Shown here piece after piece: positions 19,857 through 27,143 of a stretch of DNA of 44,496 bases (positions are counted from its first letter, which is position 1; each line of letters begins with the position of its first letter). The stretch comes from Oligoflexales bacterium. Its GTDB lineage: Bacteria; Bdellovibrionota_B; Oligoflexia; Oligoflexales; Bog-1112. The DNA is taken from assembly GCA_045106415.1 (NCBI GenBank), contig JBGCEP010000031.1, positions 1 through 44,496 on the forward strand, in the 5' to 3' direction. The position numbers and the translations under genes are program-made. The notes beneath the pieces were generated by a model, which was not told the DNA's origin, did not search any database, and was given only the letters and a program-made list of their open reading frames with translations.

Positions 19857-19873
19857 TTGGCACATATCATGCA
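19857..19873 (+). promoter_or_regulatory. sigma54 (-24/-12) promoter
   Basis: TTGGCACATATCATGCA gives GG-N10-GC with TGGCAC, about 40 nt before GTG 19911. Confidence 0.7.
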
Positions 19874-19910
19874 TGGAATAGGTGATAAGCACAGATATGA
19901 AGGTGGTGCA

Positions 19911-21326
19911 GTGTCTCAAAATCGAAAGCAATTTTTCGGCGAGGTTGGGTATAAGGACGCGGAAAAAGGTGGCGCTCTTTTAGGTTCACTTTTTTTTGTT
20001 ATGATCAGCGGTATTACGATGTTAGGCTTGAGCCAATTTCAAAGTTCAGACCTTAAAAGGGGACAACAGTTCCGGGATCAAAGGATGCTGGATCAGTTGG
20101 GTTCTCAGATGGAACGTTCGATTCAGTCTGCAGCTGTTCTTCGCCTTGCGAGCTACAGTGGGAAAAACCCACCAGCACCAAATGTTCCTTTTACACATGT
20201 CAGCTCTGGTAACAGAGCCTTATACCGTTGTTGGAGGCATGATACCGATACGCTGGATACAGCAGAGCTGCAGGTTGATTGCAGACATATGGAGATCCAT
20301 AGCTTTGTCGTTCCTAGGGTTTCAGGTGAACAAAGGCTTGCATTAGCTGGTGTTGAGAGTGATGGCCCAACTGTTTACTATACTGGGCGTGGCGATCGCT
20401 GTCTTGAAAATCCAGGACTGAGTCTGGATGGGTTAAAATGTGGTGATAGAAAAGGGACTTCACCATTATATCAAGCTGTCGCTGAATTTAGAGCTCGTTG
20501 CCCTGAAGATCAAGCAGAGTGTGCGATTGCGGAGTTTATTGATGTTCGTTTTCTTCTTTATAATGAAAATGGCCGGAGAGTATACCCACGAGGTCGGCAA
20601 AATGATGATGATGTGACCCCTTGGGAAACAATTTCTACAAGCACGCTTAGAGGTCAACAGTGTAATGAAGGAGCTCTAGCTCGTTCAACAAAAAATAGCC
20701 ACCTTAAGTGCGAGTGTGTGTTTCCTTGGCAACCGACAGGACGAGAAAATATCAACGGTGAAGTCTGTTTTCGAGTGAATATTCAAACCCACCATGAGTG
20801 CCAGCCAGAAGAGTCAGTTCGAGGATTTGATCCCAAGGCTGATAACTATTTTGGAAAAGAACGCTCTCGCCTTCAGTGTTTAAAACCAGCGAGTAGCCGG
20901 ACAAGAACTCAAAGCTTTAAGGGAAATAAGCGTGGTGATGGCGGTAGCGTGCAAGGCTTTAGCAATGGTGATTGTGATACAGGATGGGTGCAGTCAGCGG
21001 TCCCTGTTTGTACGGCAAGGTGTGATGTTAAGAAAAAACGTGGCGACGAGCCTGATTGGTATGAATCGGCAGTAACAGCTGGTTTAACAGGGCTTGTTAC
21101 TGTGTTTGTATTAGGAGGTGGTTTCCTGCCAGCTTTATTAGCAGGAGGGGCTTTGTCTGTTCTATCTGCAGTTTTTGAGCCTATTGAAGACGTTGTCAAT
21201 AGCGTTATTTGCGCTATTGGAGGGCTGTTTGGCAGTGGTTGTCAGTCTTATCTGAGTCCTTGTGTCCCTAAGGTGGAGTGTCAACTTGAAGTCACTTGCC
21301 AGGATTTCAATTACGACCAATTTTGA
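19911..21326 (+). CDS. Large GspK/PilX-like minor (pseudo)pilin, Cys-rich, with C-terminal hydrophobic Gly-rich segment
   Basis: Charged leader then EKG|GALLGSLFFVMISGITMLGL (class III-like signal lacking Glu5); 20 Cys; AVTAGLTGLVTVFVLGGGFLPALLAGGALSVLSAVF. Start GTG 19911 after AAGGTGG. Confidence 0.6.
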   Translation: MSQNRKQFFGEVGYKDAEKGGALLGSLFFVMISGITMLGLSQFQSSDLKRGQQFRDQRMLDQLGSQMERSIQSAAVLRLASYSGKNPPAPNVPFTHVSSGNRALYRCWRHDTDTLDTAELQVDCRHMEIHSFVVPRVSGEQRLALAGVESDGPTVYYTGRGDRCLENPGLSLDGLKCGDRKGTSPLYQAVAEFRARCPEDQAECAIAEFIDVRFLLYNENGRRVYPRGRQNDDDVTPWETISTSTLRGQQCNEGALARSTKNSHLKCECVFPWQPTGRENINGEVCFRVNIQTHHECQPEESVRGFDPKADNYFGKERSRLQCLKPASSRTRTQSFKGNKRGDGGSVQGFSNGDCDTGWVQSAVPVCTARCDVKKKRGDEPDWYESAVTAGLTGLVTVFVLGGGFLPALLAGGALSVLSAVFEPIEDVVNSVICAIGGLFGSGCQSYLSPCVPKVECQLEVTCQDFNYDQF

Positions 21327-22089: not shown

Positions 22090-23319
22090 TTATCGTTTGT
22101 TTTTTGGTCTTTGTGGAGGAGTTTGTTTTAAGTGTGATTGGTCTTGATTCAGTTCTCTTTTAAGAGATTCATGATTATCACGTTGAGAGTTTAGTCGGGC
22201 ATCTTCTTTTTTCATGATTAAGTTTTCCATGATGTGATGTTCATTGAGTTTTGAAATAGATTCTGCGAATTCCACCATCTTTACAAATGTTTTTAAAGTG
22301 TATTCTGGTGTGTTTTTCCCTGTCCCGAGTATCTTTTTTTGAGCATGAATCATATTATGTTCATCAATCGTTGTGCTGTAAATGACTTTGTTGACAAATT
22401 TTTTCGTGTTTTCATTGAGTGCTTCTTTCTCTGTTTTTGTAAATTCAGCTAATTTTGAATCAATAACAACCCACTTTCTTGTTGTGTAATCATACATAAT
22501 GTTTGCAGGGTTTAAATCATCAAAGATTTGTTTCGAATCAGAGATGTCGAGTATAAGTTGACGCAGTGTTTCTTGTAAATTTTCTGAATGATTTTTTGTT
22601 TTTCCGGTGACATCAGAAAAAAATGTTCCTTGTTCAATGAGTTCTTTTAAAGTTCTTCCTTGTACAATCGTTTTCATATCGATATCGTCACGTCCCTCAA
22701 AAGTTTCTATTTGAATAGGGTTTCCGAATTTCTTCCATTGTTTTACAAGGGTTTTCTCTTCTTCAACTTCAGATTGACCTTGGAACCACTGTGAAACTTT
22801 TGTTAATACTTCATTATGCCGGTATAGGTATTTCATTGCCCATGGTTCTACACGGCCGTCGTCTAGAATTTTATTGACTTGAAAGACAATTCCATGACTA
22901 CCTTTTTTACCAAGCACGACTGGAGATCCATCTTCGTTGTAAATGGGTTCAAATGCTTCTGGGACTTTGATGACATAGTTCTCAAAATAAATTGTATTTT
23001 TAACATTACTTTTTTCTGATTCTTCTATTGTAGCTTGGTGTGATGTGTCGAAAGGTTTTTCATCTTGATCTTCTTTTGCTTTTAAAGATAAGGGGGAGTT
23101 TGCCTCTCGAGTGATTTTAATAATATTTGTGACCTGGCCTTCATCGTTTTCAATGGCAATAAGATCGATAGCATGGCCTGCGTCGAGTAAGAAATTAACA
23201 ACCTCTTTTTGAGGTTGAATATGTTCTGAGTTCTGTTCATTGCTTGGAGAAAGATTTTCGTTTTTTTCACCGCATGAAAAACAAAGAATAAAAAAGAGAG
23301 ATTTCAATATCAGCTTCAT
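22090..23319 (-). CDS. Lipoprotein with protein-kinase-like domain
   Basis: MKLILKSLFFILCFSC leader; LGKKGSHGIVF Gly loop, WAMKY, DDLNPANI catalytic loop, VIDS. Confidence 0.8.
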   Translation of the reverse strand: MKLILKSLFFILCFSCGEKNENLSPSNEQNSEHIQPQKEVVNFLLDAGHAIDLIAIENDEGQVTNIIKITREANSPLSLKAKEDQDEKPFDTSHQATIEESEKSNVKNTIYFENYVIKVPEAFEPIYNEDGSPVVLGKKGSHGIVFQVNKILDDGRVEPWAMKYLYRHNEVLTKVSQWFQGQSEVEEEKTLVKQWKKFGNPIQIETFEGRDDIDMKTIVQGRTLKELIEQGTFFSDVTGKTKNHSENLQETLRQLILDISDSKQIFDDLNPANIMYDYTTRKWVVIDSKLAEFTKTEKEALNENTKKFVNKVIYSTTIDEHNMIHAQKKILGTGKNTPEYTLKTFVKMVEFAESISKLNEHHIMENLIMKKEDARLNSQRDNHESLKRELNQDQSHLKQTPPQRPKNKR

Positions 23320-23351
23320 CAGGAACCACCGTTGTAACAAGAGTTAAGTTC

Positions 23352-23617: not shown

Positions 23618-24541
23618 ATGGTAGGGCATAAAAGCATAATAATCATGCTCTGTGTGTGTTTTGTATTTCCAGGCTGTTTTCAAGAAAATACATCGCCTGA
23701 TTCAAATTCCAGGGAACGCCCGAGCTCTCAAAATTCAGTGGATGCTCTAAATCATCAAAACGTAGGGCAGGGCCCCGATTCAACCGTGATATCCTCTGAT
23801 CAAAGGATCCCTATTTCAACGCTTCAATATGATGCCGACACATCTTTTTTCGGGCCATCATCAGCTTTGAGTGAAGCTGAACGCTTAGAGCTTGAAGCTT
23901 ATGTTCTTCAACAACAAAAATTAGCAGATTTAGAAAATTATTATCGCTTTGAAGAAAGTCGTAACCTTCAGCTTGTAGCCGAGCTTCGGACAGGGCAACT
24001 CTCTGGTTGCCATCTCAGAGATAAAGTTCAAGAGATTGAAATTGTTTTAACAGGGTCAAAAGAAGAAGCTCAGTTTTTAAGTCGAACATCAGACCCTGAT
24101 TTTTACACAGGCTTTGATACCTCCTTGTCTTGGAAGCTTCAGTTTTCAGAAGCATATGGCTTTGAGGGCGAGAGAGTCCAATCACTGTTTGGCGATGGAA
24201 AAGGTCGTATCGTTCAGAGCCCTGAGGGTCTTGAGGTTAGAATGTTGCAGTATGTGTTGGTGGAAAGATCTGGTTTTAAGTATGAGAAATATGAAAAACT
24301 TGAGCGAGATTGGATCCTTTTTAATAAAAAATTCTATGAGTATTATGAGAGTGATCGAGTTCGTTTGGAAGGAGTTAAAGTTGTTGTAACAAACCAAGTC
24401 GGTCAAAAATATACTATTTATAACAACACTTCTATTGGAGTCACCTTAGGATCAAATTTGGAAATCTGGTCAGAGGATCTTAGAGGGTCTGCTGAATGGG
24501 GAGCTCTTATGGCTCGTACAGATTGTGAGGATACGCAATGA
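23618..24541 (+). CDS. Hypothetical lipoprotein, beta-rich (possibly PLAT-like) C-terminal domain
   Basis: FPGC lipobox-like; low-complexity linker; IEIVLTG...LFGDGKG...LQYVLVER...RLEGVKVVV; stop overlaps the next start (ATGA). Confidence 0.7.
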   Translation: MVGHKSIIIMLCVCFVFPGCFQENTSPDSNSRERPSSQNSVDALNHQNVGQGPDSTVISSDQRIPISTLQYDADTSFFGPSSALSEAERLELEAYVLQQQKLADLENYYRFEESRNLQLVAELRTGQLSGCHLRDKVQEIEIVLTGSKEEAQFLSRTSDPDFYTGFDTSLSWKLQFSEAYGFEGERVQSLFGDGKGRIVQSPEGLEVRMLQYVLVERSGFKYEKYEKLERDWILFNKKFYEYYESDRVRLEGVKVVVTNQVGQKYTIYNNTSIGVTLGSNLEIWSEDLRGSAEWGALMARTDCEDTQ

Positions 24542-25914
24542 TTCAATGCTTTTTGATCATCGTTTTTCTCATGTTTTCTTGTCAGCAAAAACCTGTCAGC
24601 ACTGAAAAAGAGAATTCATGTCAAGTCACCGGGTGTGAGGATACAGTATCCCCAATAAACGCAGATGCTGTGATTGATAATGATATTGAAGAAGAAGAGG
24701 GCGCTCTTATAGAAGGTCTTCAAAGTACTTACGAAAAAAAGTGGACTTTGGCTGAGATGGACAATGAGTTGATCGTGACGGATCCTATTGTGGGGATGCT
24801 GGATTTGATTGGTTCAAGAGTTCCAGTCCTTTCTGTAGAGAGTACGAATGGGACCAGTTATCTTCAGGTGGTTCGGTGTCTTTCTTCTGCTAAAATACAA
24901 GATTTTTCTACAGGAAATTTACTAAGAGATATCGCAGATGCTCCGCGAAAAGACCAGAGGTTAAAGGCTTACCTAGAATTTGATTATTTTTCTCTTGCAG
25001 AACAACACCCGGATTGCTTCTTGTTGAGCTTTGAACACATGTCTGATGTTTTCCCAGATTTTGCGGCTCCTTCGGGTCAATATGTTTATTTGATACGTTC
25101 TTGTCTTGAAAGTTCTTTAATTGATAGAAAATCAGGAGAACCCTCTAGAAATTGTTCGCGATATGTTGCTCGATCTTCTTCTTATGAATACGTCAATGAG
25201 CGTCAAGATAGAGAGCAAGAAGCTCTTATGGATGCTCAGCAAAAAAGACTGGCCCTGAGAGGCCACTCAATTAGAATAGATGGGGTGGCCACAAGAATGC
25301 AGAGTGCTTTAGAGGTTTGTCAGAAACAGCAAGTTGAGCAATTAGAAGCAGTAAAAAAGAAACAAGCGATAGCTAAACTTATCGGAACAACAATTAACAC
25401 GGCGGCGAATGCTTTTGTAATAACAAAAGGTTTAGGGAGTGTTGCGTCGACAGGTGGCAAGAAAATTATTTCAGCAGGTTCAAAACTAGGAAAAGCAAAA
25501 GCAATAGGGAGTGCCGGAGGGAGCCTTCTGGGGGTTGGAATGCTTGTCGGAGGTTTGTTTGACGGCCCGTTGCCACAAGCTTTTGTCAATATTACCGCGC
25601 ATGCAACAGATATTCCAAGAACTTGTTATGACTGGGAACAGAGTCAACAGGATATGAGAAGAGCTGTTGCTCAATACGCCAATGCTATGGAGCAATGGCT
25701 TTGGAGTGAAAAAAAATGGCTTGATATGAGCCGAGCAAGGTATTTAGAGGAAGGGTTTGAGCCGGAAAGTTTACCAGATTGGAATAAAATTATTGAAGAA
25801 TATTTAAGATGGCAGGCCTCACTCACTCCTGTTGAGTCTGAGCAAGCATCAGAGCCTGTAGATGGAGAAGAAGAGAAAAAACAATCCATAGATAGTGAAG
25901 GTGAAGAGTTATGA
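24538..25914 (+). CDS. Hypothetical lipoprotein: Cys-rich domain, coiled coil, Gly-rich hydrophobic hairpin, acidic tail
   Basis: MFSC lipobox-like; YLQVVRC, DFAAPSGQYVYLIRSC, ALEVC, AGGSLLGVGMLVGGLF; ATGA overlaps at both ends. Confidence 0.75.
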   Translation: MIQCFLIIVFLMFSCQQKPVSTEKENSCQVTGCEDTVSPINADAVIDNDIEEEEGALIEGLQSTYEKKWTLAEMDNELIVTDPIVGMLDLIGSRVPVLSVESTNGTSYLQVVRCLSSAKIQDFSTGNLLRDIADAPRKDQRLKAYLEFDYFSLAEQHPDCFLLSFEHMSDVFPDFAAPSGQYVYLIRSCLESSLIDRKSGEPSRNCSRYVARSSSYEYVNERQDREQEALMDAQQKRLALRGHSIRIDGVATRMQSALEVCQKQQVEQLEAVKKKQAIAKLIGTTINTAANAFVITKGLGSVASTGGKKIISAGSKLGKAKAIGSAGGSLLGVGMLVGGLFDGPLPQAFVNITAHATDIPRTCYDWEQSQQDMRRAVAQYANAMEQWLWSEKKWLDMSRARYLEEGFEPESLPDWNKIIEEYLRWQASLTPVESEQASEPVDGEEEKKQSIDSEGEEL

Positions 25915-27143
25915 ATATGTTCATTTTTATCACACTTATGATAACAGGGTGTTTTCAAGCCTCTGCACCTCCTCCTGCTCGTGTACATACAGACGTGTCT
26001 AAAAATATTGATCAAAAATTAGAATCGCAACCAACTGAGGAGCAAAGGGCTTCAATTCAAACTTCAGAGAAAAATCAAACACCTTATGAAATCATAGAAC
26101 AAAAGCTTGAAGAAATTCAGATTCAAATAGAAAGAGAGCCTTTTACAACAAAGTCTGAATACTGGCCATCGTTTCAGTTTTCTATCAATCATAATGAAGG
26201 ATTTGTTGAAATTATGAGGTGCCACGGGAATTTTGAATTTAAACTTTTGACAGGAGATTTTATTTTCCCAGAGGGGAGTTCTTATGCTGATAAAAATTTG
26301 CAAAGCTTTGAACTTGAAGGGGCTTGGAAAAAAGCTTTTGATGATGAGAGGTCATGTAGCCTTATCTCACAAGGGACAGGGGTTTTAACTGTACAAGATG
26401 TCGCAGCAACGGACGGGACATTTTATTATATCTTAAATCCATGTGTGCCGGACTTTTCTTTGAAGGATGGTCAACGGTGTAGTTATAAATTAGTGAGAAC
26501 CGAATTTGTGATCGATTTTGAAAATACCGTCACAAAAGATCTTAGTCAATTGGGGAAAGATCTTGCTGAAGCTGAGACGTTATTAAATGAAAGATTTGGG
26601 CGTTTGAAAGTTGAGGCGAAAAAAATTATTAGAGCTTTAGAGTCTTGTGAAAATGTTCAAACCCACGAAATGGCACAGAAATCATTTTTAACAGGCCTGA
26701 CGCAGTTGGCTGCAACAGCAACAGGAGCTGTGATTGGTGGGGTTTTAGGGGGGCCACAGGGTGCTGTCATAGCAGGGCAGCTTCTCGGTACGGTGGGAAC
26801 CCTTGTGGGTTCAATTGCTTTTCCCCCTTCGCAAGATGAATGTGCTATTGAAGCTCGAGATTCTTGGGCTCGATTTGAGCTTTTGTGGGAAGGAGATGCC
26901 CAAAGCCCTGGTGTTTCCGATATGGTCCAGCAAGCAAGTCTTATGCAGTCTGAGCTTAACCAGAGTTATTGCGAGTACCGATCTAATAATGCGGAAATTC
27001 TTGGGGATAGCATTCAGCAGGATCACTATAAGTGTGATGTTGGAGGAGAAGCTGTCCTCGAAGAGGAGGTTGAAACAGTCCCTAATGATGAAAAAGGTAG
27101 CGATGAACAAGAAAGCGTTGAACAAGAAAGCGTTGAACAGTAA
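25911..27143 (+). CDS. Hypothetical lipoprotein, paralogue of the preceding gene, with glycine-zipper hairpin
   Basis: ITGC lipobox; FVEIMRC, DVAATDGTFYYILNPC, ALESC, ATGAVIGGVLGGPQGAVIAGQLLGTVGTLVG. Confidence 0.75.
   Translation: MNMFIFITLMITGCFQASAPPPARVHTDVSKNIDQKLESQPTEEQRASIQTSEKNQTPYEIIEQKLEEIQIQIEREPFTTKSEYWPSFQFSINHNEGFVEIMRCHGNFEFKLLTGDFIFPEGSSYADKNLQSFELEGAWKKAFDDERSCSLISQGTGVLTVQDVAATDGTFYYILNPCVPDFSLKDGQRCSYKLVRTEFVIDFENTVTKDLSQLGKDLAEAETLLNERFGRLKVEAKKIIRALESCENVQTHEMAQKSFLTGLTQLAATATGAVIGGVLGGPQGAVIAGQLLGTVGTLVGSIAFPPSQDECAIEARDSWARFELLWEGDAQSPGVSDMVQQASLMQSELNQSYCEYRSNNAEILGDSIQQDHYKCDVGGEAVLEEEVETVPNDEKGSDEQESVEQESVEQ
27104..27139 (+). repeat. 15-bp coding tandem repeat (EQESV, about 2.4 copies)
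   Basis: TGAACAAGAAAGCGT TGAACAAGAAAGCGT TGAACA. Confidence 0.9.

Follow-up and report, generated by a model that had tools for sequence, protein, structure and literature searches.

Cap subunits decide what a type IV filament touches and how its assembly starts. As set out in PMC10191384, type IV filament tip complexes are capped by a subunit that lacks the glutamate at position 5 of the mature protein (Glu5). In the T2SS (type II secretion system), GspK (XcpX) is the Glu5-less cap pseudopilin in the GspK-GspI-GspJ tip complex (PDB 3ci0). Modular pilins (S. sanguinis PilB and PilC, CofB, TcpB, ComZ) join an N-terminal pilin module to extra C-terminal modules; PMC8179133 describes them as widespread, counts 264 architectures, and defines the class by IPR012902 together with a named domain. 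The subject here is a gene on a 44,496-nucleotide stretch of DNA from an Oligoflexales bacterium (contig JBGCEP010000031.1 of assembly GCA_045106415.1, positions 1 to 44,496; the whole of this stretch is the window). To judge from its sequence, the product is the Glu5-less member of a lineage-specific, Cys-rich, pilin-like trio, with a C-terminal two-helix hairpin that was gained in one family-level clade (designated f1). An earlier reading of the same DNA from its letters alone (the sequence-only reading) had taken the protein for a pilus-tip subunit presenting a membrane-inserting loop; the comparisons that follow uphold its pilin-like identity and point to a different role for the hairpin.

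The maximal open reading frame (ORF), 19857-21326 (+), has 489 codons counted from TTG 19857. The gene caller's start, GTG 19911, is the likely beginning of the gene. Residue numbers refer to the resulting 471-residue protein throughout; 18 is added to obtain the 489-codon numbering of the sequence-only reading. The features of the locus are these:

19858..19873, + strand: candidate sigma54-like -24/-12 element, TGGCACATATCATGCA (TGGCAC-N5-ATGCA), with GG at 19859-60 and GC at 19871-72; intergenic, 53 nt before GTG 19911
19900..19906, + strand: Shine-Dalgarno-like AAGGTGG, 4 nt 5' of GTG 19911
19911..21326, + strand: coding sequence, 471 aa (P0001), from the gene caller's GTG 19911 to stop TGA 21324-21326; kept in relatives
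19911..19970, + strand: putative prepilin leader of 20 residues, the last being the invariant Gly(-1) (from alignments of relatives)
19971..20660, + strand: pilin-like module, predicted as alpha1-N (GALLGSLFFVMISGITMLGLSQFQ, +5 not Glu), a long helix to residue 72 and an antiparallel beta sheet (from AlphaFold, structural matches, and hmmsearch to Glu5 paralogs)
20661..21026, + strand: Cys-rich, beta-rich middle region with the core QCNEGA...KCECVFPW, including CTARC at 21009-21023 (from invariant Cys columns)
21066..21239, + strand: putative C-terminal hydrophobic hairpin, made up of a 37-residue uncharged Gly-rich stretch, EPIED and the VVNSVICAIGGLFGSG segment (from sequence and AlphaFold helices)
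21240..21323, + strand: C-terminal tail: three Cys specific to the lineage, plus the C-x5-C pair kept throughout the family, C457 and C463 (from the alignment and a modelled strand)

Every feature that the sequence-only reading listed is there: the G↓GALLG N-terminus without Glu5 (the arrow marks the cut), the 20 Cys, the uncharged Gly-rich stretch, its brackets, and GG-N10-GC. The uncharged stretch (residues 404-440 in 489-aa numbering) is 37 residues long and holds 7 Gly; the PIEDVVNSVICAIGGLFGSG segment 3' of it has a moderate helical hydrophobic moment of 0.35-0.49. The hydrophobic region as a whole is bracketed by CTARC before it and by CVPKVECQLEVTC, at 21261-21299, after it. With 1 GxxxG and 11 small-xxx-small motifs the Gly-rich stretch is no textbook glycine zipper. 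A classical glycine-zipper toxin was considered and rejected: no Gly-zipper Pfam family matches, OsmB reaching 0.082 in the paralog only. Thirteen of the 20 Cys fall in columns that are invariant across 17 relatives.

The ORF is a genuine, conserved gene. A 42%-identical paralog lies on contig C39 of the same genome, and a 9-member profile finds full-length matches in 13 of the 15 other genomes of clade f1 (the two without a match are 59% and 92% complete). These relatives and the invariant Cys columns dispose of a chance ORF or assembly artefact, to which nothing lends itself except the lack of database annotation and which we regard as having practically no chance of being right. That lack is real enough: Pfam and NCBIfam scans of the window protein return no family match, and Pfam run on all 17 members gives a best E of 0.015, to unrelated families. 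Among the matches listed by a word-indexed single-sequence search (8000 candidates) the protein finds itself only; the corresponding profile search (8000 candidates) has one further protein among the matches listed. A full HMMER scan of 1.84 billion representative proteins yields 7 at E <= 0.001, including the protein itself and the paralog, and the source label of one homologue reads 'Oligoflexales bacterium'. Across 79 genomes from 15 other families of the order there is no full-length match, only partial matches to shorter paralogs, and a search of 131 genomes of the phylum gives the same distribution picture. By these sequence searches the full-length family is, as found so far, restricted to the one family-level clade.

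Within the family, conservation falls on a few defining positions. In the 17-member alignment (20-42% identity) Gly(-1), Leu(+3), 13 Cys and the C-terminal C-x5-C pair are invariant. The residue before the cut is Gly in 17/17 sequences of alignment A2; among the 45 sequences of alignment A3 it is Gly in 42 and Ala in 3. C457 and C463 are present in 17/17, the C-x5-C standing at the very end of the protein in 16 and internally in one longer protein. The features read from the sequence are not attributable to chance, since relatives at 20-42% identity repeat the motif at the N-terminus, the pattern of Cys, the hydrophobic pair near the C-terminus and the C-x5-C at the end. In two relatives of one genus, L022 (genome G005) and L023 (genome G015), the protein continues past the C-x5-C with a linker rich in Ser/Gly/Thr and a further, repeat-like C-terminal domain; in the G015 copy an unreadable base divides the gene into two frames.

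The N-terminal sequence is ...AEKG↓GALLGSLFFVMISG; position +5 is occupied by Gly and not by Glu. A short basic leader to Gly(-1), MSQNRKQFFGEVGYKDAEKG, is followed by about 20 hydrophobic residues beginning GALLGSLFFVMISGITMLGL. Searched with hmmsearch in the same and related genomes, a profile of the N-terminal ~250 residues finds paralogs that do carry Glu5, at E 1e-9 to 1e-20. These are ~340-470 aa long with 16-23 Cys, most begin G↓F(S/T)L(V/L)E, and the Cys-rich middle region is common to them (compared with EGF-like domains, the middle region of the window protein gives insignificant matches only). Glu stands at +5 in 26/26 sequences of the partner type and in 0/19 of the non-Glu5 classes. 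For the Glu5 partners encoded here the curated threshold of N_methyl or TIGR02532 is reached, and the joint module profile (A3, 45 sequences) matches solved pilins, with Geopilin at 1.3e-6 and pilins or pseudopilins in 21 of the 22 rows at E <= 10.

AlphaFold models the module with pLDDT 84 and pTM 0.76, as a helix over residues 20-72 followed by an antiparallel sheet. Compared by VIA-align with 48,161 representative PDB chains, the model matches EpsI best (Z 4.6, 83/84 residues aligned, rmsd 3.3), then GspI (PDB 3ci0, Z 4.0), XcpV (3.8), S. sanguinis PilA (3.5) and ComZ (3.4). All five of these top matches are pilin-class, as are 12 of the top 23 rows. ESM Atlas relates the whole protein at 0.84-0.86 to hypothetical proteins, 15-43% of which carry N_methyl, matches that serve as leads only; the C-terminal part gives no usable feature match there. 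The predicted pilin fold of the module is suggestive, not conclusive. The prediction leans toward a pilin all the same (pLDDT 84, structural matches at Z 3.4-4.6), and the assignment by the sequence-only reading to a Glu5-less, cap or tip class of pilin-type protein is borne out in that the module is homologous to adjacent prepilin-motif proteins, the A3 profile matches pilins and the best folds are pseudopilins or minor pilins.

The resemblance to GspK is one of position and N-terminus. Like GspK, the window protein has a prepilin-type N-terminus that lacks Glu5, is larger than ordinary pilins, and goes with two pilin-like partners that do bear Glu5; over 31 residues its leader and helix closely resemble those of the GspK encoded elsewhere in this genome (EKG↓VSLLIAL). 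Unlike GspK, it has 20 Cys and a predicted C-terminal membrane hairpin. Alignment to the genome's own GspK by hhalign covers the N-terminal 31 residues only, with a probability of 24.5%. Its assignment as a GspK was rejected: no T2SSK domain (PF03934 / PF21687) is found in the 17 members at E <= 1, and the genome has a GspK of its own, with a T2SSK_1st domain at 36 bits. The window gene is standalone and not part of a gsp operon, contig C21 having its own G, H, I, J and K. The window protein resembles GspK but is not a GspK. PilX_N (PF14341) gives a best E of 0.17, in 1 of the 17 members. The T2SS-like operon on contig C21 (C21:1270-16691, L056) is complete, with a tandem secretin pair, GspE, F, G, H, I, J and K, and a PilM-like GspL.

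With the modular pilins the protein shares its layout, an N-terminal pilin module carrying extra C-terminal modules, and ComZ, CofB and S. sanguinis PilA are among the structural matches of its module. The architecture fits that class, but of the defining IPR012902 and named domain neither is detected in the protein. The difference lies at the far end: the grafts described for modular pilins are soluble adhesive or enzymatic domains, whereas the last module here would be a membrane-helix pair. The Verru_Chthon cassette proteins C and D (TIGR02599, TIGR02596) offer another likeness, being lineage-specific cassettes, small clusters of proteins that evolve fast, have prepilin-type N-termini and come without machinery attached. 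Matches of the partners to the Verru_Chthon models are at E 0.026-0.48, which is no significant similarity, and the present set differs from those cassettes in being Cys-rich (16-28 Cys per protein) and in having a member without Glu5.

The partners themselves lie on other contigs of the genome. On contig C39 the paralog is directly followed by two Glu5 pilin-like genes; on contig C2 a second Glu5 pair adjoins a rapA-like gene, an arrangement that recurs in two sister genomes. (The Cys-rich Glu5 pilin-like genes, with 20 Cys each, are at C39:545-4171 and C2:5779-8108; L045, L046.) The window gene, the C39 paralog and the Glu5 genes thus make up two complete trios. In a maximum-likelihood (ML) tree of the module the window gene is sister to the C39 paralog (support 100/100), and the two C2 genes each have one C39 gene as their sister (100/99 and 100/98), pairings which indicate that the whole trio was duplicated together in this lineage. 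Joint duplication of all three in turn argues that the three genes work together. Complex prediction for the window module with the two C2 partners scores 0.01 and is evidence neither way. The genome also has an A24 prepilin peptidase (contig C14), T2SS and type IV pilus (T4P) ATPases, and secretins.

The same tree places the origin of the hairpin. The Glu5-less proteins of f1 form one group (support 89/86, below the starred level), inside which two f1 members with no clear hairpin are nested. Those Glu5-less members that belong to other families fall into a clade of their own (100/99), with the N-terminal hydrophobic helix only and a CC motif at the end. Since these lack a hairpin and stand apart, the hairpin is an addition specific to f1.

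In 16 of the 17 members the maximum 19-residue hydropathy after the last ectodomain Cys is 1.8-3.2, to be compared with 1.9-2.4 for the pilin helix. In most genera a short Pro/Gly turn (SNPGT, TMPAG, YTGP) links two helices, each 20-30 residues long, and in five members and L006 a Trp-rich motif (WDW/NW, for example NWDW) comes right behind the second helix. The short turns carry Lys or Arg in 0/13 members. In three relatives (L025, P0005 and P0007) the two hydrophobic segments lie 258-299 residues apart, with 39-44 Lys/Arg between them. Lys/Arg-rich loops of membrane proteins lie in the cytoplasm (the positive-inside rule), and by that rule the turn of these three is cytoplasmic. The hairpin thus looks like an ordinary membrane-helix pair with its turn in the cytoplasm. 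The three orthologues in question are 729-838 aa long; their inserts are Ala/Lys/Ser/Gly-rich and of low complexity, that of P0007 having 43 Lys/Arg to 4 Asp/Glu.

For the window protein as a whole the AlphaFold model has a pLDDT of 66, with the tail strand (452-466) at 72-78. The hydrophobic hairpin leaves the Cys-rich beta domain and then re-enters it, with helices at pLDDT 37-45; to this extent the sequence-only reading, which described a disulfide-caged hydrophobic hairpin, is supported. VIA-align on the C-terminal third (325-471) retrieves only small unrelated alpha/beta proteins, at Z 3.3-4.5.

These facts suffice for a tentative account, which we favour while giving it somewhat less than an even chance: a cap-type, Glu5-less, pilin-like subunit that nucleates a small assembly with two Glu5 partners while tethered to its own inner membrane. 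The N-terminal helix would insert N-in by the Sec route, the ~340-residue ectodomain would be oxidised in the periplasm, and the leader would probably be removed by the genome's A24 prepilin peptidase. The two C-terminal helices would then lodge in the inner membrane of the same cell, the turn facing the cytoplasm and the last ~30 residues returning to the periplasm, where the invariant Cys may fasten the tail to the last beta domain. By analogy with GspK on GspI-GspJ, the Glu5-less protein would sit atop the two Glu5 partners. Since the far end of the protein would stay in the membrane, a short stub or primer tethered there is a likelier assembly than a free fibre's tip. The Lys/Arg-rich and hence cytoplasmic turn of the three relatives is what favours such a tethered subunit over a killing loop at a tip. 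The likeliest topology is then the case that the sequence-only reading had set against its own proposal, an inner-membrane protein anchored at both ends, though a pilin fold is predicted as well. That the protein is a modular, pilin-like one without Glu5 stands on much firmer ground than that it is tethered.

A number of observations weigh against this account. N_methyl (PF07963) and IV_pilin_GFxxxE (TIGR02532) match neither the window protein nor its 16 relatives, and the profile of the hairpin family by itself misses solved pilins (best 0.78), so that the link to pilins is transitive. The structural matches are weak, all at Z < 5, and the closest fold is that of GspI, not GspK; Foldseek against the PDB gives nothing at E <= 0.001 with either the whole model or the N-terminal one. 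The gene is remote from any pilus or secretion operon. At the C-terminus, the hairpin helices 383-401 and 415-437 are modelled at a pLDDT of only 37-45. In the window copy and the paralog the hairpin is shorter, has 19-24% Gly and is less hydrophobic than in other genera; acidic residues (EPIED) inside its second part weaken the case further; and an uncharged turn combined with 4-5 Lys/Arg before the hairpin, on what is presumed to be the periplasmic side, means that the window copy does not cleanly follow the positive-inside rule. Finally, it is difficult to see how a filament could grow beneath a cap subunit that the membrane holds at both ends.

Alternatively, the protein may be a pilin-derived resident of the membrane with no filament role, its N-terminal helix an uncleaved signal anchor, and may act by itself as a periplasmic Cys-rich binding or structural module that three membrane helices hold in place; this we consider unlikely, yet worth keeping in view. 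Anchoring at both ends suits a resident membrane protein. The window copy is also standalone, ~7 kb from mutL-miaA (as is its counterpart in a sister genome), with neighbours that are not conserved; no pilin hidden Markov model matches the protein itself; and the T2SS operon already has its own GspK. An uncleaved anchor sits badly, however, with Gly(-1) and the leader pattern [KRQ]G↓, which are invariant in all 17 members and suggest ongoing selection for recognition by the peptidase; and a role apart from pilins sits badly with a paralog that is co-operonic with two Glu5 pilin-like genes, with the joint duplication of the trio, and with the recurrence, in other families of the order, of two- and three-gene sets that contain a non-Glu5 member.

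The proposal that the subunit rides to the tip of an extended pilus or pseudopilus, where its disulfide-clamped hairpin would insert into another cell's membrane for anchoring or leakage, is close to what the sequence-only reading had put forward, and it now appears improbable. Analogy is on its side: in a minor-pilin set the tip is the place of the member without Glu5 (PMC10191384), and modular pilins with C-terminal grafts are common and thought to be tip-exposed (PMC8179133). The modelled hairpin does leave and re-enter the last beta domain, and in this genus it is Gly-rich, with only the hydrophobicity of a pilin helix, hence possibly extractable. Pore-forming-toxin hairpins and glycine-zipper peptides are, like it, pairs of uncharged Gly/Ala/Ser-rich helices with a short Pro/Gly turn; the short turns are uncharged in 13/13 members, as in toxin hairpins that insert from outside. 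But such hydrophobic helices should stop in the producing cell's own membrane during Sec export, and in the relatives their hydropathy equals or exceeds that of the pilin helix. The 258-299-residue Lys/Arg-rich turn of three orthologues could not be pulled through a bilayer; in contrast to the toxins, these expanded turns suggest an anchor that stays in the membrane. Among toxin, bacteriocin and glycine-zipper families there is no match (models of SLATT and holins reach 0.36-0.46, in single members only), there is the single GxxxG, and no immunity-like small gene is evident next to the window gene. The claim of a tip-presented loop for contact-dependent anchoring or killing is accordingly not supported, though for this Gly-rich copy it keeps a small probability. 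A bolder variant, rather a long shot in our estimation, is a type IV filament that works as a harpoon, its cap subunit equipped with a membrane-insertion device of its own: the assembly motor would draw the Gly-rich hairpin from the inner membrane of the producing cell and the fibre tip would deliver it into a neighbour's membrane, giving contact-dependent anchoring or permeabilisation. In its milder version, covered by the same low estimate, the hairpin and its sometimes very long cytoplasmic turn would form a mechanical or signalling link between a periplasmic priming complex and the cytoplasm.

What the tethered cap-type subunit would mean is easily stated. If the protein does stay in the inner membrane, it would be a bacterial pilin-like protein that serves as a fixed machine part and not as a fibre subunit; if the hairpin does travel to a tip, another cell's membrane would be acted on in a new manner. 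In both cases the family provides a compact, testable set of three Cys-rich pilin-like proteins, one of them without Glu5, in a little-studied lineage. The literature searched yielded no pilin or pseudopilin described as having a membrane hairpin at its C-terminus, though the supplementary datasets of PMC8179133, which lay outside that search, could list one; the word 'transmembrane' is absent from the main text of that paper. PMC4858521 was rejected as a precedent, as it concerns S-layer-like proteins and not pilins.

The gene had also been placed behind a sigma54 promoter. The sigma54 consensus is TGGCAC-N5-TTGCW, with GG and GC 10 nt apart. The element TGGCACATATCATGCA matches 10 of its 12 specified positions and has the GG-N10-GC spacing; it overlaps TTG 19857 and counts as upstream only if GTG 19911 is the start. 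Bare GG-N10-GC occurs 11,463 times in the genome, so that only the extended match has weight. Sites at least as good as this one number 125 in 5.9 Mb (both strands), a density at which chance alone would put one into ~0.5% of upstream regions of 250 nt. The pattern TGGCAC-N5-NTGC has 16 genome sites, 5 of which, the window site among them, lie between genes with a start codon ahead of them at no more than 78 nt, a number above that predicted for placement by chance. A good match, a suitable position and the presence of rpoN (217 bits) thus speak for the promoter, and a simple scan for sigma70-type sites in the 159-nt upstream gap finds none on the + strand. On the other side, a site with at least 8 of 12 positions is found in 0 of 14 other upstream regions (12 orthologues, the paralog and the C2 pair), so that the element is not conserved. 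A sigma54 promoter here is supported at roughly even odds; if it is one, transcription may start ~27 nt before the GTG. The other four sigma54-like sites lie 11-78 nt before gene starts (C5:10017, C23:20911, C30:62883, C70:40047), and the genes behind them include an SLT transglycosylase and an ABC1-kinase-domain protein. Upstream of the orthologue L011 (G007:C146, 1-840) there are several near-identical ~50-nt direct repeats (TTCTAAAGAGGGCGTTCCCCCCTCTTTAGGAATCTCCCCCCTGTTCTTT...).

Elsewhere in the window, 22090-23340 (-) encodes a 416-aa protein whose matches to the OspG-type kinase domain (E 2.6e-4) and to a kinase region of lanthionine synthetase are both below cut-off. At 23618-27143 (+) stand three genes in a row whose N-termini are lipoprotein-like (LMFSC, ITGC). 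The last two, 24538-25914 and 25911-27143, are weak paralogs (BLASTP E 4e-5), whose products each have a Gly-rich hydrophobic segment and sub-threshold matches to C19orf12 and to the PdsO glycine zipper. Over positions 1-42000 of the window the GC skew is positive (0.06-0.20) in every 2-kb bin, irrespective of gene strand.

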